The notes under the pieces: generated by a model | What the model saw: the letters and a program-made list of their open reading frames with translations, nothing else | What the model was told of the DNA's origin: nothing | Databases searched by the model: none | Translations under genes and position numbers: made by a program | Shown here: piece after piece, positions 2,547-38,939 of the stretch | How the letters are laid out: each line of letters opens with the position of its first letter | Position numbering within the stretch: position 1 is the first letter of the stretch | Assembly: GCA_936933955.1 (NCBI GenBank) | Contig: CAKZIN010000093.1 | Location: 23,425-87,424, forward strand | Length of the DNA stretch: 64,000 nucleotides | Reading direction: 5' to 3' | Source of the DNA: an uncultured Sphingopyxis sp. | GTDB taxonomy: Bacteria > Pseudomonadota > Alphaproteobacteria > Sphingomonadales > Sphingomonadaceae

Positions 2547-3146
2547 ATGTCCGACGTCCCGCTTCCCCCGTTCAACGACCTCTCCTCCCCCGCCGCGCTG
2601 CTCGCGACCCGCCGGTCCGGTCGAGCGCGAGAGATGGTGGAGCCGGGTCCCGACGCAGCGAGCCTGGAAGCCATCGTCGCATCCGCCATCCGCGTGCCCG
2701 ATCACGGCAAGCTCGCGCCGTGGCGGTGGGTCGAGATCGTCGACCGCGACGCCTTTGCAGCGCTCCTCCAGCGCGCGCATCGCGCCGCGCATGGCGGCAT
2801 CGTGCAGGGCGAAGATCGCATCGCGATCGACAAGTTTGCCCGCGCCGCACCAACCGCACTTGCGCTGATCGCAAGCCCGCAGCGGTCATCCAAAATACCG
2901 GAGTGGGAGCAGCTGCTGTCGGTCGGAGCCAGCGCGATGCAGCTGCTCGACGCGGCGCATGCACGTGGCTTCGTCGGCAATTGGCTGACCGGCTGGGCGA
3001 GTTACGATCCGACCGTCGCCGCAGGTCTCGGGGTCGGCGAGGGCGAGCGGATCGCCGGGTTCTTCTTCATCGGCACCCCCAGTGCGCCGCTCGAGGAACG
3101 CCCGCGTCCGGCGCTGGCGGACCGCTTTACGAGGTGGACCGGTTGA
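2547..3146 (+). CDS. nitroreductase-family protein
   Basis: Internal ATG of ORF 2490..3146. Nitroreductase-fold motifs RRSxRxF and PxHGKLAPWRWVEI. Confidence 0.7.
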   Translation: MSDVPLPPFNDLSSPAALLATRRSGRAREMVEPGPDAASLEAIVASAIRVPDHGKLAPWRWVEIVDRDAFAALLQRAHRAAHGGIVQGEDRIAIDKFARAAPTALALIASPQRSSKIPEWEQLLSVGASAMQLLDAAHARGFVGNWLTGWASYDPTVAAGLGVGEGERIAGFFFIGTPSAPLEERPRPALADRFTRWTG

Positions 3147-3525: not shown

Positions 3526-5474
3526 AAGCCTGCGTCGCGTGCCCAGCGCGCGATCACCGGATCGTCAGGGTCGAGCTGCCGCGCCTTCCCGAGCAGATCC
3601 GCAGCATCGCGGGGGCGTGCGCCGCCGAGCGCCAGCACCCGGCCATAAATCGAGCTTGTCGCGGCGCTCATCGGCATCAGGCGGTACGCCCGCTCCGCGA
3701 ACGGCAGCGCGTCCTCGACCCGCCCGATTTCAGTCAAGGCGCGGGCGTAACGCGCGTCGAGCAGCGCGTCGTTCGTCCCAAGCCGAGCGATGGCCGCAGA
3801 ATACGCGCCCGCCGCCGCGCCCCAATCGCCATCCTCCGCAGCGAAATTGCCTGCGAGCTTCGTCGCGCTCGCGTCCTCCGGCCAACGCGCAAGATACTCC
3901 GCGAGTGTAGTCCGCGCGGCGTCGCGCCGGCCACTCGCCAGCTGCGCCTCGACCAGCCGCATCGCTGCGGCGCGATCGAAGCGCAGCTCCGCGGCGCGGG
4001 TGTAGGCAGCGACGGCGCCGGCGAAGTCGCCCGTTTGGCGCGCGACGTCGCCAACAAGGATCGCCGCCTCTGCGACGCCGGGGTTGCGACGTGAGAGCTC
4101 GCTCGCTCGCGCCGCCGCCCTGCCAGCGTCCCCGTCACGGAGGGCGGCGCGGATCGCAGCGACCTCGAGGCCGACCCCACCCTGGGGCGCATCGTCGGGC
4201 CTCAGCACGTCGGCATCGCCGCGAGTCCCGCTCGCCGCGCGCGCTCGCGGTTCGATGGCCGCGAGCGGCTGGCCATAAGCCTCCGCCATGCGCGCGAGCA
4301 GCAGCAGAGACCAGCTGTCGGCATCGCGGCGCGTCGTCAGCGGATCGAGCAGCGCGATGGCATCGCCGCTCGCGCCGCTGCGGGCGACGGCGAGCGCCAG
4401 CAGTCGGCATGCGTCGCGGTGGCCGGGCGCGGCCCGCATCAGGGCGAGCGCCTCGTTCCGCGCGGTCAGATCGTCGCGCAAAGTGAGCGCGGTGGCCGAG
4501 CGCAGCAGCTGCTCACCCGCCGCGCCAATGCCAGCGCGGGCCAGCAAAGCGCGCGCCAGCGCGGGCTCTCCGCCGCGGATCGCGAGCACCGCGCGGAGAT
4601 AGGCTATCCGTGGGTTGCCGGGATCAAGATCGGCGGCCCTTCGGAGCGTATCGACCGCCGCCTCGCCGCGCCCCGCCTCCCCCAACGCTGCGGCATAGCT
4701 GACGAGCGTCGGCACATCCTCAGGTGCTTGGGCGAGCGCGGCGCGGTACCAGGGGAGGCCCGACACCGGCCCTCCGCGCGCGGTGACGACGTCGGCTTTG
4801 AACAGGCGCGCGGCGACGCCACTGCCCGGCGACCGGCGTGCAGCGTCCGCAGCGGCGTCGGCGCCGAGCATGTCCTCCTCCGCCAGCCGCAGCCTGCCCA
4901 GCGCGACCCACGCGGCCTCGCCACCGCCCGCCTCGATGGCGCGTCGATAGGCTGCGTCGGCTCCGAGCGGGTCGTCCGTCATGCGCAACGCATCGCCGCG
5001 CAGGATGAGCGCGGGCGGCGTCTGGTGCGGAATCGCGTCAATCAGCGCGAGCGCCGCTTGTGGATCGCGGCGAAGCAAACGCGCGCGAGCGAAGTGCACC
5101 GTCAGCGCAGCGCGTGGCAGGCCAAGCTCGGCGGCGCGACTAAGGTTGCGTTCGGCCTCCTCGGCGCGCCCCAGAGCAAGCTGCGCCAGCGCGAGGTCGC
5201 GGTGCAGCCCGGGATTGCGCGGCTGCGTCTGCAACGCGGCGGTCAGGTCCACCCGCGCCGAGCGGGCGTCGCCTGCCAGCAACGCGGCGCGTCCGCGCTC
5301 CGCCGGGTCGAACGTCAGCGCGCGCCACCCCCATACTGCCCCGACGAGGGCAAGTACCAGCGCCAGCACGGCGAGGCCGCGGGCGAGCGGACTCCATCGA
5401 CGTCTCGCGTCGTCCGGCTGCTGCGAAAGCGCCGCTTCGCGCCGGCGCTTACGCGCGCTCGGCGGCGAAACCAT
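3522..5474 (-). CDS. prsT: Membrane-anchored TPR-repeat protein, PrsT-like (PEP-CTERM system-associated)
   Basis: 650 aa. N-terminal TM helix, then Ala/Leu-rich TPR repeats throughout. Lies immediately downstream of prsR-prsK on the same strand. Confidence 0.5.
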   Translation of the reverse strand: MVSPPSARKRRREAALSQQPDDARRRWSPLARGLAVLALVLALVGAVWGWRALTFDPAERGRAALLAGDARSARVDLTAALQTQPRNPGLHRDLALAQLALGRAEEAERNLSRAAELGLPRAALTVHFARARLLRRDPQAALALIDAIPHQTPPALILRGDALRMTDDPLGADAAYRRAIEAGGGEAAWVALGRLRLAEEDMLGADAAADAARRSPGSGVAARLFKADVVTARGGPVSGLPWYRAALAQAPEDVPTLVSYAAALGEAGRGEAAVDTLRRAADLDPGNPRIAYLRAVLAIRGGEPALARALLARAGIGAAGEQLLRSATALTLRDDLTARNEALALMRAAPGHRDACRLLALAVARSGASGDAIALLDPLTTRRDADSWSLLLLARMAEAYGQPLAAIEPRARAASGTRGDADVLRPDDAPQGGVGLEVAAIRAALRDGDAGRAAARASELSRRNPGVAEAAILVGDVARQTGDFAGAVAAYTRAAELRFDRAAAMRLVEAQLASGRRDAARTTLAEYLARWPEDASATKLAGNFAAEDGDWGAAAGAYSAAIARLGTNDALLDARYARALTEIGRVEDALPFAERAYRLMPMSAATSSIYGRVLALGGARPRDAADLLGKARQLDPDDPVIARWARDAGF

Positions 5475-29871: not shown

Positions 29872-31365
29872 TCAGTGCCCGGAACCGAGCGCCTTGATGA
29901 TGTCGTCGACCATCTTCTTGGCATCGGCGAGCAGCATCATCGTGTTGTCGCGGTAGAAAATGTCGTTATCGACCCCGGCATAGCCTACTCCGCCCATCGA
30001 CCGTTTGATGAAGAAGACGGTCTTGGCCTTGTCGACGTCGAACACCGGCATGCCGTAGATCGGCGATTTGGAGTCGGTCTTCGCCGCGGGGTTCACGACG
30101 TCATTGGCGCCGATGATGAAGGCGACGTCGGCCTGCGCAAACTCGCCGTTGATATCCTCAAGCTCGAACACCTCGTCATATGGGACGTTCGCTTCGGCGA
30201 GCAGCACGTTCATGTGCCCCGGCATCCGTCCTGCGACGGGGTGGATCGCATATTTGACGCTGACCCCCTCCTTCTTGAGGAGGTCCGCCATCTCACGCAG
30301 GCTGTGCTGCGCCTGGGCAACCGCCATGCCATAGCCGGGCACGATGATGACGCTTTCGGCTTGGCTCATCATGTAGGCGGCGTCTTCGGCGGACCCGCGC
30401 TTCCACGGACGATCGGTCGCAGCCGCAGCGTCGTTTCCCCCGGCCTCGGCGCCAAAGCCCCCGGCGATGACGCTGATGAAGCTACGGTTCATCGCGCGAC
30501 ACATGATGTAGGAGAGGATCGCGCCCGAAGCGCCCACCAGCGCGCCGGTGATGATCATCGCCGTATTGCCGAGCGTGAAACCCATCGCCGCTGCCGCCCA
30601 ACCCGAATAGCTGTTGAGCATGCTCACCACGACCGGCATGTCCGCGCCGCCGATCGGGATGATCAGCAGGAAGCCGATGGCGAACGCGAGCAAGGTGATG
30701 ATCGCGAGGTAAGGCACGCTCGTCCCGCTCGGATCGAGCGCGTAGGCCGCGGTAAGCCCGACAATCGCCGCCAGCGTGCCGAGGTTGATGACGTGCCGCC
30801 CAGGCAACAGGATCGGCTTGCCGCTCATCTTCCCCGCGAGCTTGAGGAAAGCGATGATGCTGCCGGAAAAAGTGATCGCGCCGATGGCGACGCCCAGCGC
30901 CAGTTCCACGCGGCTGACAGTGTGAATCGCTCCGCCCGGATCAGCGATGCCAAAGGCTTGCGGGTTGAGGTAAGCCGACCAGCCGACCAGCACCGCAGCG
31001 AGGCCGACCAAGCTATGGAAGGCCGCGACGAGTTGCGGCATGTCGGTCATCGCAATACGCCGCGCGATGATCCAGCCGATCGCGCCGCCGATGCCGATCG
31101 CGCCGACGATTTCCGGCAGGGACGCAAGCTCATGCGTGACGAGCGTTGTTCCCACCGCCAGCGCCATCCCCGCCATGCCAAGCATGTTGCCCCGCCGCGC
31201 GGTCGTCGGATGCGACAGTCCCCGCAGCGCGAGGATGAAGCACACCCCCGCTACGAGGTAAGCGAGCGTCGCCCAGGGGTTCGCCGCGGCATGCTCCACG
31301 AGTTGTGGCAGCCCGGCGGGCTCGGCAATAGCCGGAGGCAGGGCGTCGGGAAGGCTCAACGCCAC
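29872..31365 (-). CDS. pntB: NAD(P) transhydrogenase subunit beta
   Basis: 497 aa. Polytopic N-terminus plus a C-terminal NADP(H)-binding domain. Confidence 0.9.
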   Translation of the reverse strand: MALSLPDALPPAIAEPAGLPQLVEHAAANPWATLAYLVAGVCFILALRGLSHPTTARRGNMLGMAGMALAVGTTLVTHELASLPEIVGAIGIGGAIGWIIARRIAMTDMPQLVAAFHSLVGLAAVLVGWSAYLNPQAFGIADPGGAIHTVSRVELALGVAIGAITFSGSIIAFLKLAGKMSGKPILLPGRHVINLGTLAAIVGLTAAYALDPSGTSVPYLAIITLLAFAIGFLLIIPIGGADMPVVVSMLNSYSGWAAAAMGFTLGNTAMIITGALVGASGAILSYIMCRAMNRSFISVIAGGFGAEAGGNDAAAATDRPWKRGSAEDAAYMMSQAESVIIVPGYGMAVAQAQHSLREMADLLKKEGVSVKYAIHPVAGRMPGHMNVLLAEANVPYDEVFELEDINGEFAQADVAFIIGANDVVNPAAKTDSKSPIYGMPVFDVDKAKTVFFIKRSMGGVGYAGVDNDIFYRDNTMMLLADAKKMVDDIIKALGSGH

Positions 31366-31369
31366 AGCC

Positions 31370-31651
31370 TCAGCGCTCCTTTCTCTTGTACATGGCGAGC
31401 ATGCGTTCGGTGACAGCGAAGCCGCCGAAGATGTTGATGCTCGCCAACACGACGGCCGCCAGCCCGAGCCACTTGGCGGCGACGCTGCCCGAAGCCGCGC
31501 TGGCGATCAGCGCGCCGACGATAATGACACTCGAGATCGCGTTGGTGACCGCCATCAGCGGCGTGTGCAGCGCAGGCGTGACGCTCCACACCACATAGTA
31601 GCCGACGAAACAGGCCAGCACGAAGATCGACAGGATCGAGATGAAGTCCAC
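31370..31651 (-). CDS. pntAB: NAD(P) transhydrogenase subunit alpha part 2 (membrane segment)
   Basis: 93-aa hydrophobic protein with a GTG start, immediately upstream of pntB. Confidence 0.8.
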   Translation of the reverse strand: MDFISILSIFVLACFVGYYVVWSVTPALHTPLMAVTNAISSVIIVGALIASAASGSVAAKWLGLAAVVLASINIFGGFAVTERMLAMYKRKER

Positions 31652-31665
31652 GGTTATGCGTCCCC

Positions 31666-32025
31666 CTAAATCTTCGAGTTCGCATATCGAGCGATCGAGT
31701 CGGCGACGCCGCCCACGTCGGCGAGAACGTCCGATGCCGCGATCCGAACGATTTCGAGACTCCCACGCTGCTTGAGGGAAAGGTCCCGACGCGCGTCCCT
31801 TATCGGGCGGTCAGCCATGTCATGTGCAATTCCGTCGATTTCGATGACGAGTCGTGGGCTGTGGCAATAGAAGTCCGTGGCAAAACCTCGCATCGGATGC
31901 TGGCGCCGGAATTTCAGGCCAAACGGGCGCGCGCGAAGGTGCTGCCACAACAACCCCTCTGGAAGCGAGGTGTTGGACCGAAGCCGCCGTGCGGCTGCGA
32001 TGGTAGTCCGGTCCGCGCCGATCAC
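31666..32025 (-). CDS. DUF559 endonuclease-domain protein (Vsr-like fold)
   Basis: LRxxxTxxExxLWxxLRxRxxxxKFRRQHP...DFYC...LVIEIDGxxH...RDxxL motif series of DUF559; 119 aa with a GTG start. Stop lies 14 bp before the pntAB start. Confidence 0.75.
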   Translation of the reverse strand: MIGADRTTIAAARRLRSNTSLPEGLLWQHLRARPFGLKFRRQHPMRGFATDFYCHSPRLVIEIDGIAHDMADRPIRDARRDLSLKQRGSLEIVRIAASDVLADVGGVADSIARYANSKI

Positions 32026-32031
32026 CCGTCC

Positions 32032-32160
32032 CTCCCCTGCAAGGGGAGATGGCAGCCGCAGGCTGACGGAGGGGTGAAGCCGTCTCCGACGAAGCGCGCA
32101 GTCTCAAGGGCGACACCCCTCCGACCCCGCCCCGCGGGGCCACCTCCCCTTGCAGGGGAG
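32032..32160. repeat. About 129-bp element bounded by inverse copies of a 17-bp hairpin motif (CTCCCC-TGCAA-GGGGAG / CTCCCC-TTGCA-GGGGAG); internal perfect palindrome GCCCCGCGGGGC
   Basis: Seen directly: 32032-32048 and 32144-32160 are reverse complements of each other. Palindrome at 32129-32140. Lies between the pntAA stop and the DUF559 start. Confidence 0.45.
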
Positions 32161-32179
32161 GGACTGAATGGCGCGCCCC

Positions 32180-33301
32180 TCACCCCGCCAGCCGTTCGTT
32201 GACGACGGCGCCGCCCTGCGTCAGGCGGATGGCGCTGCCGATTTCGTCGTCGAGAGTCACCTCCGCCCGCTCCTTATCCCAAAAGGCGGCGAGGAGGTTG
32301 TGGAGGTTGCGGGCGTAAAGCGCGCTCGCGTCACTGGCGAGCGTCGCCGCCATGTTGCGCGCGCCGATCAGTGTGACGCCGTGTCGTTCCACGCTCTCCC
32401 CCGCCAGCGCGCCCTCGACGTTGCCGCCGGTCTCCGCGGCGAGATCGACGACGACGCTGCCCGCGCGCATGGTGGCGAGCTGCGCGTCGCTGATCAGCCG
32501 CGGCGCCGCGCGGCCGGGGATTTGCGCCGTCGTGATGACGATGTCCTGCTTAGCAAGGTGCGCGGATACGAGTTCCGCCTGCGCCGCCTGATATTCGGGC
32601 GACATCTCGGTGGCATAGCCGCCGCTGCCTTCGCCTTCGATCCCCGCGACATTCTCGACGAAGATGGGCTTGGCGCCGAGGCTCATAATCTGTTCGCGGG
32701 TCGCTGCCCGCACGTCGGTCGCGCTCACCTGCGCCCCCAGCCGCCGCGCGGTGGCGATCGCCTGGAGGCCGGCGACGCCGACGCCCATCACGAACACCCG
32801 GGCAGCGGTGATCGTGCCCGCGGCGGTCATCATCATCGGCAGCGCGCGACCGAAGGCATTGGCGGCGACCAGCACCGATTTGTAGCCTGCGAGGTTGGCC
32901 TGGCTCGACAGGACGTCCATAGACTGCGCGCGGGTGATGCGGGGCATGAGGTCCATCGCCCAGCCCTCAAGGCCAGACGCGGCATATTGCTGCACCCGAT
33001 CGCGTTCGCGCAACGGATCGAACACCGCGAGCACGCGCGCGCCCTTGTTCGCCCCGGCGAGCGCGGCGAGCGGCGGGGGCTGGACCGCAAGGACCATGTC
33101 CGCGCTTGCCGCAACCTCATTCGCGGAGGCAACGACGGCTCCAGCTGTGCGGTAGTCGTCATCGGCGATGCCCGCTGCGACGCCCGCGCCGCTTTCGACA
33201 GCGACGCTCGCACCCAGCGCCATGAGCTTGCGAACCGTCTCCGGCGTGGCCGCCACCCTGTATTCGGCAGGGGCGGTTTCGCGCAGAACGGCGATCTTCA
33301 T
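32180..33301 (-). CDS. pntAA: NAD(P) transhydrogenase subunit alpha part 1
   Basis: 373 aa. Alanine-dehydrogenase/PNT N- and C-domains; NAD-binding GxGxxG (VMGVGVAG). Confidence 0.9.
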   Translation of the reverse strand: MKIAVLRETAPAEYRVAATPETVRKLMALGASVAVESGAGVAAGIADDDYRTAGAVVASANEVAASADMVLAVQPPPLAALAGANKGARVLAVFDPLRERDRVQQYAASGLEGWAMDLMPRITRAQSMDVLSSQANLAGYKSVLVAANAFGRALPMMMTAAGTITAARVFVMGVGVAGLQAIATARRLGAQVSATDVRAATREQIMSLGAKPIFVENVAGIEGEGSGGYATEMSPEYQAAQAELVSAHLAKQDIVITTAQIPGRAAPRLISDAQLATMRAGSVVVDLAAETGGNVEGALAGESVERHGVTLIGARNMAATLASDASALYARNLHNLLAAFWDKERAEVTLDDEIGSAIRLTQGGAVVNERLAG

Positions 33302-33314
33302 GCGCGGGCGAGCT

Positions 33315-33434
33315 TCAGGAGATCAGCCAGACGACGAGCGCCACGAGCAGCGCGACCGCAATAGTCGCATATTTCGCGACCCCGACGAACCCGCCGTATG
33401 TGCCGCGCGCCTCGCTCAGATCATTGTGCGCCAT
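33315..33434 (-). CDS. aa3-type cytochrome c oxidase subunit IV-like small membrane protein (39 aa)
   Basis: MAHNDLSEARGTYGGFVGVAKYATIAVALLVALVVWLIS, a single TM helix. The TY/F-GGF...K motif resembles PF07835-type bacterial CoxIV. It is the in-frame C-terminal tail of spurious track ORF 33315..34010. Confidence 0.45.
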   Translation of the reverse strand: MAHNDLSEARGTYGGFVGVAKYATIAVALLVALVVWLIS

Positions 33435-33594: not shown

Positions 33595-35031
33595 TTGGAC
33601 TTCGGCTTGACGACGCTCCACGGCGAACCGCTGGTGCTGCTGATCGACGGCGACGATGCGCGCGCGCGCTTCATCGCCGCCTCGCTCGCGCGCGTCGGGT
33701 GGAAGGCGCAACGCTTGGCGGACCCGAGCCGCGCGGCACCATGCTTAGCCGCGGCGTCGGGCGTAGTGACCGACGCGGTGTTGATTGCGAGCGACTTCGT
33801 GACCGACGGTCTCACCGAAACGGTGGCCGCGTCGCGCGCTATCCTGCCGCGACCGCCGGTCGTCGTGCACGCCACCGAGCCGCCCACGCTGGCGCACGTC
33901 GTCGAAGCACTTCGCAACGGTGCCGATGATATCCTGGTCGCGCCCCTGTCGGGTGAGCGGATCGACCGCGCGATGAGGGCAGCGCGGGCGGCCGTGCAGC
34001 GCGGCACCATGTCGAGTGCCCCCCTCTCCTTCGACGCGCTGCCTGCGCCTCAACTCGATGAGATCCCGGCAACGTCAGCTCCAATGAAGGAGGCGGTGAG
34101 GCTCGCGGGCCAGGCCGCGCGGGGCTGTGCGCCTGTCGTGTTGGTCGGGGAGCCAGGCAGCGGTCGCTGCATCCTTGCCCATGCCCTTCATCGGCATGCG
34201 GGAGAGGGGACGCCGCTCGTCACCTTCGACTGCGCGGATCACCCGCCGTCGATGATCGCGCCGCTGCTGTTTGGCTATGAGCAAGGGGCGTTCCCCGGGG
34301 CGTTCGAGCGCAATTCGGGCCGGATCGCGGGCGCGGAGGGCGGGTCGCTGATCATCCGCAACGCCGAGCTCCTTCCCGCCGACGCGCAGGCCCGGCTGGC
34401 GGAGTATCTCCACGGGGGATGGGTGCTGCCGGTCGGCGGTACCGTTGCCCATCGTCATAATGTGCGGCTGATTGCCTCTTCGACCACCAGCTTGCGCCGT
34501 CTCGCCGAGCGCGGAGACATGCGCGAAGATCTGGCCGCGAGGTGGAGCGTGGTGGAAATCGCTGTCCCGCCATTGCGGGAGCGTAAAGGTGACATCTGGT
34601 CGATAGCGTCATCGACGATTGCGCAGGTAACAAAAGACGGTTCCGACAGCCATTTGCTGTCCGATCCGGGGGTACGCCGGACGTTGGAAGAAAACCCTTG
34701 GCCGACAAATGTGCTCGGCCTGCGATCGACGATTTTGCGTGCTTACGCTACGTCAGCTTGCAACGGCTCCTTCACGCTTGGGGAAACGACTATCACCGCA
34801 CCCACCCCCGATATGGCCTCCACTGCTGCGAGTGATGTTATCGGGGGGACCCTCGAACTACTCCAGGCCGATGGGCACCTCCGCAGCCTGGATGCGATCG
34901 AGGCGGACGTCATCCGCCTCGCCATCCGCCACTACCAAGGGCGAATGAGCGAGGTGGCACGAAGGTTGGGGATCGGGCGGTCGACGCTCTACCGAAAGCT
35001 AAGCGAAATCGGCATCGACACCGCCGCCTGA
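33595..35031 (+). CDS. NtrC-family (sigma-54 activator-like) transcriptional regulator with degenerate receiver and degenerate AAA+ motifs
   Basis: TTG start. Domain order receiver-like - AAA+ - Fis HTH (SEVARRLGIGRSTLYRKL). Walker A is GEPGSGRC (consensus GESGTGKE). GAFTGA is replaced by GAFPGA. Walker B DE is replaced by RN (GGSLIIRNAELL). Confidence 0.7.
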   Translation: MDFGLTTLHGEPLVLLIDGDDARARFIAASLARVGWKAQRLADPSRAAPCLAAASGVVTDAVLIASDFVTDGLTETVAASRAILPRPPVVVHATEPPTLAHVVEALRNGADDILVAPLSGERIDRAMRAARAAVQRGTMSSAPLSFDALPAPQLDEIPATSAPMKEAVRLAGQAARGCAPVVLVGEPGSGRCILAHALHRHAGEGTPLVTFDCADHPPSMIAPLLFGYEQGAFPGAFERNSGRIAGAEGGSLIIRNAELLPADAQARLAEYLHGGWVLPVGGTVAHRHNVRLIASSTTSLRRLAERGDMREDLAARWSVVEIAVPPLRERKGDIWSIASSTIAQVTKDGSDSHLLSDPGVRRTLEENPWPTNVLGLRSTILRAYATSACNGSFTLGETTITAPTPDMASTAASDVIGGTLELLQADGHLRSLDAIEADVIRLAIRHYQGRMSEVARRLGIGRSTLYRKLSEIGIDTAA

Positions 35032-38012: not shown

Positions 38013-38043
38013 CTCCCCTCCCCATGAGGGGGAGGGGGGGGGG
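38013..38043. repeat. GC hairpin element CTCCCCTCCCC-ATGA-GGGGGAGGGG followed by a 10-nt poly-G tract
   Basis: Seen directly; G run at 38034-38043. Intergenic, between the ccrM start and the rnhB end. Confidence 0.4.
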
Positions 38044-38064
38044 AAGCTTAATCCAGGGGCAGCG

Positions 38065-38649
38065 CTAGAGCGCCAGCTCCAGCTGCGCGACCGGGGCAAA
38101 GCCGCGGCGGTGAAGGGGGCACGGGCCATGCGCACGCAGCGCGACAAGGTGATCGGGCGTGCCATAGCCCTTGTGGCGGGAAAAGCCGTAGGCAGGGAAC
38201 TCAGCGCACGCCGCCTCCATCAACCGGTCGCGGTGCTGCTTGGCGATGATCGACGCCGCGCCGATAGAGGCATCGCGCGCATCGCCACCGACCAGCGGCA
38301 CCGCGCGCCAACGCCACTCGGCGCGCCGCCCGGCGGGGGTGAGGTTGCCATCGACGCGCACCTCCTCGGGTTCCGCCCCCGCCGCTTCGCACAGGGAGAG
38401 CACCGCCCGGGTCATCGCCAGCATGGTCGCACCGAAGATGTTGAGAGCGTCGATCTCCTCGACGCTGGCGATGCCCACGCCCACGGTGCAACGCCGCAGG
38501 ATCGCCGCCTCCGCCTTGGCGCGAGCGGCGGCGTTGAGCGCCTTCGAATCGCCGATCCCCGGCGGCCGCGGCTTGCACAGCGCCACCGCCGCCGCGACCA
38601 CCGGCCCCGCCAACGGCCCCCGCCCGGCTTCGTCCACGCCGACGATCAT
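38065..38649 (-). CDS. rnhB: ribonuclease HII
   Basis: Internal ATG (MIVGVDEAGRGPLAGPVVAAAV) is the canonical RNase HII N-terminus with the catalytic DEAGRG motif. Start overlaps the stop of the upstream ABM gene (ATGA). Confidence 0.8.
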   Translation of the reverse strand: MIVGVDEAGRGPLAGPVVAAAVALCKPRPPGIGDSKALNAAARAKAEAAILRRCTVGVGIASVEEIDALNIFGATMLAMTRAVLSLCEAAGAEPEEVRVDGNLTPAGRRAEWRWRAVPLVGGDARDASIGAASIIAKQHRDRLMEAACAEFPAYGFSRHKGYGTPDHLVALRAHGPCPLHRRGFAPVAQLELAL

Positions 38650-38939
38650 CGGACCCACATGTCGATCTGCTGGTCGAGCACGCGCTCCTTGTGCTCCACT
38701 GCGATCGCGTCGATCATGCGGCGGTAGAGATCGGGGTCGGCTCGCATCGCTGAACTTGCCTGACGGGTGGCGAGGTCGGGCCAGCGCGCGATCGCGACAA
38801 CACTTCCGTCTGCGCTTTTGAAAAGCGAGGAACCCAACGACCCTTGCCGCTTCAGATGCTCGGTCACCGCGGTCCACGCCTCTACGAACTGCTCCTCCCG
38901 TCCGGGCACGAGCGTCCAGCGATAGTAGATCGCGATCAC
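38646..38939 (-). CDS. ABM-domain (antibiotic-biosynthesis-monooxygenase-like) protein
   Basis: 97 aa; ferredoxin-like ABM fold signature (WxxxxEHxxS...F). Confidence 0.55.
   Translation of the reverse strand: MIAIYYRWTLVPGREEQFVEAWTAVTEHLKRQGSLGSSLFKSADGSVVAIARWPDLATRQASSAMRADPDLYRRMIDAIAVEHKERVLDQQIDMWVR

Follow-up and report, generated by a model that had tools for sequence, protein, structure and literature searches.

A DUF559 nuclease gene and paired hairpin repeats between pntAA and pntAB in an uncultured Sphingopyxis: a probable selfish cassette resembling REPIN-RAYT systems

Small enzyme genes that live with short hairpin repeats have been described in REPIN-RAYT systems, in which repetitive extragenic palindromic (REP) sequences, often joined into inverted doublets (REPINs), accompany a REP-associated tyrosine transposase (RAYT) of the HUH/Y1 class. 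Vsr-like homing endonucleases are found both free-standing and encoded in introns, as in the I-Bth0305I family and in “fractured genes” (PMC2677866, PMC3239194). Miniature inverted-repeat transposable elements (MITEs) are the gene-less counterparts of longer parent transposons, and the Vsr repair nucleases share one superfamily with Caulobacter VsrA, itself a DUF559 protein. DUF559 is a very large family without an agreed function. Here we compare these systems with a 528-bp block in a 64-kb stretch of DNA from an uncultured Sphingopyxis sp. (“the window,” meaning the whole stretch analyzed), where it separates the transhydrogenase genes pntAA and pntAB and contains a DUF559 open reading frame (ORF) together with a 137-nt palindrome. 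We consider the block to be probably a selfish cassette in which a nuclease gene is associated with REP/REPIN-like repeats, and which is compatible with expression of the operon around it. It is also likely, in our judgment, to be one copy of a widespread cassette composed of a small DUF559 endonuclease gene plus half-element repeats.

The resemblance to REPIN-RAYT systems extends to three features. Short hairpin repeats occur at high copy number in intergenic DNA, often as inverted doublets (as shown here in related genomes); the repeats themselves flank a small enzyme gene; and several repeat families can be present per genome, each with its own enzyme paralogue. The differences are that the enzyme is a PD-(D/E)xK DUF559 protein rather than an HUH/Y1 transposase, that each repeat unit has two hairpins, that the DUF559 genes number several per genome and are patchily distributed, and that the Sphingomonad records searched yielded no RayT homologue. 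A RAYT was rejected as the mobilizer on a tblastn search with E. coli RayT (a single query, not exhaustive, against records that may lack the main chromosome of Sphingomonas parapaucimobilis YK209), which matched many phyla but no Sphingomonad record at E ≤ 1e-3. Members of the I-Bth0305I family have a catalytic fold similar to that of the modeled DUF559 protein (3R3P; template-modeling [TM] score 0.72), are likewise small selfish nuclease genes within or between conserved genes, and show the same kind of presence/absence polymorphism at one conserved site among relatives (here 17 empty junctions, 13 with DUF559, and 21 with other genes). Unlike them, the DUF559 cassette lies in neither an intron nor an intein, it is bracketed by hairpins where homing endonuclease genes are not, and the same DUF559 lineage is found at several loci.

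With MITEs and their parent transposons the cassette shares terminal inverted repeats (TIRs) around a gene and shorter, gene-less palindromic derivatives at higher copy number. It differs from them in having no DDE, HUH, or serine/tyrosine recombinase, DUF559 being the only gene inside; in that no consistent target-site duplication was found; and in consisting of separable halves whose inner hairpins do not always match. A preliminary description of the window had proposed a MITE-like element carrying a nuclease gene. We do find a repeated, mobile-looking family, but the window palindrome lies upstream of the gene and carries none itself. Compared with Vsr and VsrA, the window protein has no PF03852 match, fits the E. 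coli Vsr fold poorly, and has no methyltransferase neighbor, and DUF559 genes here are multi-copy, repeat-flanked, and patchily distributed.

The association between nuclease gene and repeats is strong and specific. In its usual form, seen in nearly every occupied pnt slot, the cassette has a pair of inverted half-elements with the DUF559 gene between them, and half-elements are present in every DUF559-bearing pnt spacer while none of the spacers with other cargo contains one. When the upstream flank of each gene was compared with the reverse-complemented downstream flank, with z ≥ 5 taken as significant, flanking inverted repeats were recovered for 28 of 34 distinct DUF559 genes, including copies from Azospirillum and Deinococcus that have their own G/C-rich hairpins, vs. 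0 of 101 control genes (0/26 other slot genes and 0/75 pntB). An integron-like cassette array was rejected, as the other cargo has no flanking repeats (0/26) and no integrase was found among the called neighbors. In relatives the gene is flanked by TIRs of 45–55 nt, which are perfect over at least 48 nt in one metagenomic locus (L093; loci are cited by L numbers throughout).

DUF559 cassettes were also found at other junctions: between sufB and sufC, between yqeY and dnaG, inside a liu/MCC cluster, beside clpX, and at topA-era. Sphingomonas parapaucimobilis YK209 (L208, L209, L210; NZ_CP155749-CP155761) encodes at least three divergent DUF559 paralogues, located at pntAA|pntAB, yqeY|dnaG, and sufB|sufC, and each is bracketed by its own repeat family. 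These families occupy about 163, 99, and 116 places, mostly in unannotated intergenic DNA, in an assembly that consists of many “plasmid” records and from which one replicon, the main chromosome record, may be missing. The hairpin copy number and the co-localization with DUF559 genes that the preliminary description had raised were shown in related genomes (about 160 places for one family in one Sphingomonas). To sample repeats without regard to the nuclease, we assembled a metagenome set chosen by the half-element pattern alone, comprising 68 loci and 763 kb. A structure-based filter, which replaced a stricter regular expression that gave 25 instances, recognized 82 two-hairpin half-elements in this set; 13 of them (at 7 of the 68 loci) have a DUF559 ORF no more than 250 nt away, and the 763 kb contain only 7 DUF559 ORFs in all.

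Gene-less doublets occur at the pntAB|pntB junction as well (L041:4306-4448 and L080:4291-4433), and the same family is present there, as a doublet or a single half-element, at L013:4410-4454 and L025:4298-4359. Farther afield, the E. coli K-12 DUF559 gene ycjD (L218) directly follows sapF, and its 3′ end overlaps CCCCTCGCTCTTTCAGGGAGAGGGT, which has an inverted partner 154 nt farther on (L218:4217-4241 and 4396-4420). Such an arrangement hints at G/C-rich hairpins as companions of DUF559 beyond the Alphaproteobacteria.

In the window, the DUF559 ORF (31666-32025, minus strand) is intact, begins with GTG, and encodes a 119-aa Vsr-like PD-(D/E)xK nuclease; immediately upstream of it is the palindromic doublet (32028-32164, 137 nt), a gene-less, REPIN/MITE-like structure in which two inverted half-elements enclose a 37-nt loop (32077-32113). 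The 3′ part of this loop resembles the doublet loop of L197. Two inverse copies of a 17-bp hairpin had been reported in a 129-bp span, and they are indeed present, as CTCCCCTGCAAGGGGAG at 32032-32048 and its reverse complement at 32144-32160, although the inverted repeat is longer: its arms are 26 nt (32028-32053 and 32139-32164) and 96% complementary, with the 17-nt hairpins forming their tips. The supposed central palindrome, GCCCCGCGGGGC (32129-32140), is instead part of one half's inner hairpin (32125-32139), for which the other half has CAGCCGCAGGCTG. The entire 137 nt is predicted to form a single hairpin of −114 kcal/mol (z = −6.7).

The half-element on the pntAA side (32114-32164, minus strand) fits the half-element pattern, with an outer hairpin at 32144-32160 (CTCCCC-TGCAA-GGGGAG on the gene strand), an inner hairpin at 32125-32139 (CCCCGC-GGG-GCGGGG), and then GGAGGGGTG. 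That on the DUF559 side (32028-32076, minus strand) is laid out as in L221, with a CACCCCTCC tail, an inner hairpin at 32053-32065 (CAGCC-TGC-GGCTG; CAGCCGCAGGCTG), and the outer hairpin at 32032-32048. The inner stems of the two halves differ in sequence, yet both pair. In relatives the half-element measures about 45–55 nt and consists of an outer hairpin CCTCCCC-loop-GGGGAGG, a paired but variable inner hairpin, and a CCCCTCC tail. More exactly, the left half reads ATCCTCCCC-loop-GGGGAGG, inner hairpin, and then GGTGGAGGGG or GACGGAGGGG, and the right half is its reverse complement; there are two subtypes, of which the window has the GCCACC/GTC subtype. The window palindrome corresponds to a left and a right half joined without a gene. 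Pairing in the inner hairpin reaches 99% across copies, and 25 double-sided changes were counted at three of its positions, a result reached by 0 of 500 shuffles; a wider sample yielded 24 distinct inner-hairpin sequences, all of which fold. Because the sequence of the inner hairpin varies while its pairing is kept, hairpin formation itself is under selection. The hairpins had no Rfam match at E ≤ 1.

No 3′ half-element follows the window DUF559 gene. The same layout, a doublet followed by DUF559 with no 3′ half, is found in Candidatus Andeanibacterium (L221), which also has the same outer loops (TGCAA/TTGCA), while L065 and L197 combine an upstream doublet with an added 3′ half; the window doublet aligns with the doublets of all three. 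In the window as a whole, the pattern CTCCCC-N3-12-GGGGAG has 4 matches vs. 0.12 expected. The suggestion that related hairpins recur in the window held to the extent of one further hairpin (38013-38034), but tblastn and blastn revealed no second element or DUF559 copy in the 64 kb. This solitary hairpin, CTCCCCTCCCC-ATGA-GGGGGAG (GGGGGAGGGG), is followed by a run of about 12 G to position 38046; it is intergenic, beside the 3′ end of a minus-strand ORF (38065-38877), with no DUF559 gene nearby, and it resembles a sister repeat family of the L210 type.

Several features place the repeats next to translation signals. The last arm of the DUF559-side half, GGGGAGGGA, stops 5 nt short of the DUF559 GTG, where it can serve that gene as a Shine-Dalgarno sequence. 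More generally, the distance from the G-rich terminal arm (GGGGAGG) to the following start codon suits ribosome binding; this start codon is that of DUF559 in the window and that of pntAB in many relatives. In many relatives, too, the DUF559 ORF continues through the 3′ half to the pntAB start. A C-terminal tail of the form ...PPPSALRAATSPxGG... is found in many annotated DUF559 proteins of 138–141 aa (proteins P0002, P0012, P0048, P0109, and P0115); it is the translated 3′ half-element, and it may keep ribosomes moving through the hairpins to the pntAB start.

The block is an insertion at an intergenic junction. A PntAB-seeded scan with one genome per species returned 80 loci, of which 51 were Sphingomonadales-type loci with both genes on the contig; the junction was empty in 17, held DUF559 in 13, and held unrelated small genes in 21. 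These 17 related genomes with an empty junction of 3–106 bp bear out the earlier proposal that the block was inserted. Empty junctions consist of a stop codon, a spacer of 3–106 nt (most <50) with a GGGGA/GGGAG ribosome-binding site, and ATG. The 14-nt spacer GGGGACGCATAACC between the DUF559 stop and the pntAB GTG in the window (31652-31665, minus strand) resembles the native pntAB Shine-Dalgarno spacer of such junctions, for example TGA-GGGGAGCATA-ATG and TGA-AGGAGGGGGACGGAA-ATG. The other cargo comprises small co-oriented genes, among them glyoxalase, bPH_1 (bacterial PH domain), HicAB toxin-antitoxin, PDZ, and several ORFs that match no Pfam family (L006-L085; e.g., L013:3495-4001, L053:3619-3987, L056:3606-3989, L221:1878-2351, and L223:3071-3531). 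Two cargos are sometimes in tandem at the junction. Additional DUF559-occupied pnt slots were reached by other routes (L004, L005, L208, L221, L223, L092, and L197); since several DUF559 loci were found via DUF559 or the repeat, the unbiased figures are those of the PntAB-seeded sample and the controls.

Occupancy of the slot by DUF559 is not structured by descent. Mapped on the PntAA tree, it requires a Fitch minimum of 16 changes, vs. a mean of 16.0 with shuffled labels, so there is no phylogenetic signal. Pairwise identities of DUF559 and PntAA are weakly correlated (Spearman 0.25), and some pairs are concordant (L208/L033, with 89% identity for PntAA and 83% for DUF559) while others are discordant (L092/L041, with 87% for PntAA but 53% for DUF559). 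Because of the missing phylogenetic signal and the weak, partly discordant coupling of identities, we infer that the slot is not an ancient fixed locus but has been repeatedly gained, lost, or replaced. The preliminary description had named, as an outcome that would speak for such an ancient locus, an insertion carried by all close relatives with no copy elsewhere; many relatives do carry it (13/51 and others), but occupancy is patchy and the same DUF559 clade is found at other loci.

Two of the junctions bear possible traces of past events. In Sphingomonas gilva (L223), the DUF559 cassette is separated from hicAB by a chimeric pntAB′-′pntAA junction fragment (2897-3056), which combines an 82-nt 5′ piece of pntAB with an 82-nt 3′ piece of pntAA that are 92.7% and 91.5% identical, respectively, to the resident genes. 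It has the appearance of a remnant of Campbell-type integration, with a circularized junction segment contributed by a diverged donor, and the duplicated junction shows recombination at the slot and nothing beyond that. In L050, a 46-bp and otherwise empty pntAA|pntAB spacer contains a lone outer hairpin, ATCCTCCCCGTACCGGGAAGG, which may be the footprint of a lost cassette.

The protein encoded in the block is a full member of its family. It matches PF04480 with E = 5e-24 (84.6 bits vs. a cutoff of 20.6) over profile positions 5–106 of 109, and has all family-invariant residues (W27, F39, R40, D51, C54, E62, D64, G65, H68, and D77), its catalytic residues being intact. The core of these, formed by the aspartate of the DF motif and by E-x-D-G-x-x-H (D51, E62, D64, G65, and H68), is invariant across 31 homologues and across 19 pnt-slot copies plus the Neisseria gonorrhoeae DUF559 structure 3HRL, which the window protein matches at E = 9e-13. 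With an AlphaFold (AF2) model of the window protein (mean predicted local distance difference test score 87.6), the top fold match was again 3HRL (TM 0.61/0.75, probability 1.0). The catalytic domain of I-Bth0305I (3R3P) ranked second to third (TM 0.61/0.72, probability 1.0, 20–21% identity), whereas the E. coli Vsr structures 1VSR and 1CW0 ranked 21 and 25, with TM of 0.36–0.48; mitoribosomal RAP-like proteins were also among the fold matches. The Vsr family PF03852 gave no match to the window protein at E ≤ 0.01. No cytosine-5 methyltransferase gene adjoins the window DUF559, its neighbors being pntAA and pntAB, although such linkage is not obligatory (PMC12907096).

For the closest pair of slot copies dN/dS is 0.12, which indicates that the DUF559 gene is kept by purifying selection. 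In the DUF559 tree the pnt-slot copies are not monophyletic, and the window copy groups with topA/era and clpX-side copies. Close relatives also occupy sites at clpX, topA/era, liu, suf, and dnaG, and single-site fidelity is lacking. A single ancient insertion was rejected on this non-monophyly together with the missing phylogenetic signal. Two functional labels were also set aside: anti-phage defense gene, for which PADLOC gave only a marginal DpdF match (E = 0.001), and a named equivalog, as the NCBIfam PRK09767 score was far below the cutoff.

The operon around the block is undisrupted, as had been proposed. All relevant genes are on the minus strand, and all three pnt genes are full length by Pfam. 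Upstream of the insertion, pntAA (transhydrogenase alpha subunit, dI part; 32180-33301, 373 aa) is intact, with full-length matches to both AlaDh_PNT_N and AlaDh_PNT_C (PF05222 and PF01262); 15 nt (32165-32179) separate its stop codon from the palindrome. Downstream, pntAB (31370-31651; 93 aa, PNTB_4TM, PF12769 at E = 5e-37) and pntB (29872-31365; 497 aa, PF02233 at E = 8e-196) are also intact. The 528-bp gap between pntAA and pntAB, its contents (the DUF559 ORF and the 137-nt palindrome), and the position of the DUF559 stop 14 nt before the pntAB GTG agree with the preliminary description in both coordinates and gene identities. The DUF559 cassette is co-oriented with the operon, and neither a promoter nor a terminator was predicted inside the block. 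Beyond the three pnt genes, a conserved COX4_pro_2 ORF of 39–41 aa precedes pntAA (about 33315-33434, minus strand, in the window; L001:2592-2711), and a gene for a sigma-54-type regulator is divergent from pntAA (33595-35031, plus strand; L001:995-2419); both are syntenic across Sphingomonadales loci.

As for how such a cassette might persist, we propose that the nuclease would recognize or cut DNA at cognate hairpin repeats or at unoccupied sites, and that recombinational repair would then spread or maintain the gene and its repeats. This would amount to a homing-like or REPIN/RAYT-like selfish cycle with a different class of enzyme. We place less confidence in any particular chemistry of movement than in the overall interpretation of the block as a selfish cassette.

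A number of observations weigh against that interpretation. The window DUF559 gene does not have the canonical flanking repeats, its doublet being on one side only. Most half-elements of the metagenome set (69/82) have no DUF559 nearby, which makes another mover of the repeats possible. Our view of copy number in the source genome is confined to the approximately 64–88 kb of its DNA that were examined, and high copy number was seen in related genomes. A target-site duplication was not consistently found: TCATAG/TCATGAG flank L093, but nothing consistent is present in the window, L206, or L207. Among our loci no closely related filled/empty pair fixes the exact boundaries of the insertion, and the trees are simple neighbor-joining trees on short proteins. 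The Caulobacter DUF559 protein VsrA behaves as a nuclease of the host-repair type, with a link to a cytosine methyltransferase (PMC12907096). Finally, a lone PD-(D/E)xK nuclease is not known to act as a transposase.

In one alternative, DUF559 would be a hitch-hiker: the repeats would be an ordinary REP/MITE family moved by some other enzyme, and the nuclease gene would be a trapped passenger or one that inserts preferentially into the centers of existing palindromes, much as some insertion sequences target REPs. The 69 of 82 half-elements that are not beside DUF559, the gene-less doublets at other junctions, and the mismatches between the inner hairpins of the two halves in many doublets and cassettes, as expected of independent repeat units, all fit this explanation. 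We nevertheless think it unlikely, as it leaves unexplained both the DUF559-specific bracketing (28/34 vs. 0/101 controls) and the three repeat families that each bracket a DUF559 paralogue in one genome, and RayT had no homologue in the Sphingomonad records searched. A role at the RNA level seems more doubtful still. It would make the hairpins elements of stability, processing, or translational coupling in the pnt mRNA, and DUF559 an RNA-binding or RNA-cutting processor of the RAP/FASTK type, an idea that draws on the position of the element within an operon with no predicted terminator or promoter, on the pairing of anti-Shine-Dalgarno-like CCUCC with Shine-Dalgarno-like GGAGG in the outer hairpin beside start codons, on the many relatives in which the ORF extends through the 3′ half to the pntAB start, and on the mitoribosomal RAP-like fold matches (PMC11879112 for FASTKD4). 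Repeats in both orientations and in inverted pairs are, however, typical of DNA-level elements, the repeats are intergenic and at high copy number at many unrelated loci, and the nearest solved relatives of the protein are DNA endonucleases.

Slightly less credible again is a housekeeping function, in which DUF559 would repair mismatches as a Vsr-like nuclease for a cytosine methyltransferase whose gene lies elsewhere, and the hairpins would be unrelated neighbors. The functional tie of VsrA to an unlinked methyltransferase gives it a precedent (PMC12907096), and purifying selection on the protein is in keeping with it, but it has to contend with several divergent paralogues in one genome, with patchy presence among species, and with systematic bracketing by repeats, which is not expected of a repair gene; the fold, moreover, is nearer to a homing endonuclease than to Vsr, with no PF03852 match. 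Least probable of all, and very improbable in our view, is an ancient operon member that entered once in the Sphingomonadales ancestor and was then inherited vertically with many losses. That the same slot is filled in many genera and that divergence is concordant in some close pairs (L208/L033) would suit such a history; occupancy without phylogenetic signal, two repeat subtypes and non-monophyletic DUF559 lineages in the slot, and discordant pairs (L092/L041) run counter to it.

The interpretation as a selfish nuclease cassette can be extended, though here we are tentative and regard the extension as possible rather than probable. DUF559 nucleases could be enzymes dedicated to a second REPIN-like system, one independent of RAYT, in which each paralogue would recognize its own two-hairpin family, nuclease and repeats would be maintained jointly as a unit that propagates itself or is tolerated by the host, and cassettes would settle preferentially in junctions of housekeeping operons, where they would supply the ribosome-binding site of the next gene. 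The pairing of DUF559 with flanking hairpin repeats was not found described in the literature that we covered, which was incomplete, so this is an absence of evidence only.

The DUF559-repeat pairing suggests a testable role for the family, that of a nuclease living with, and probably acting on, its own repeat family, in parallel with REPIN-RAYT. The extended proposal, if true, would assign a biological role to the large PF04480 family of “unknown function” and would account for a whole class of G/C-rich hairpin repeats that high-GC bacteria carry. The G/C-rich hairpin repeats of Alphaproteobacteria are also routinely mis-translated into the tails of annotated proteins (e.g., PPPSALRAATSP...). 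The pntAA-pntAB-pntB operon, which belongs to energy metabolism, contains a landing pad on which small foreign genes have repeatedly settled while the operon stayed intact. This bears on the tolerance of operons toward selfish DNA, and the site might serve for neutral insertions.

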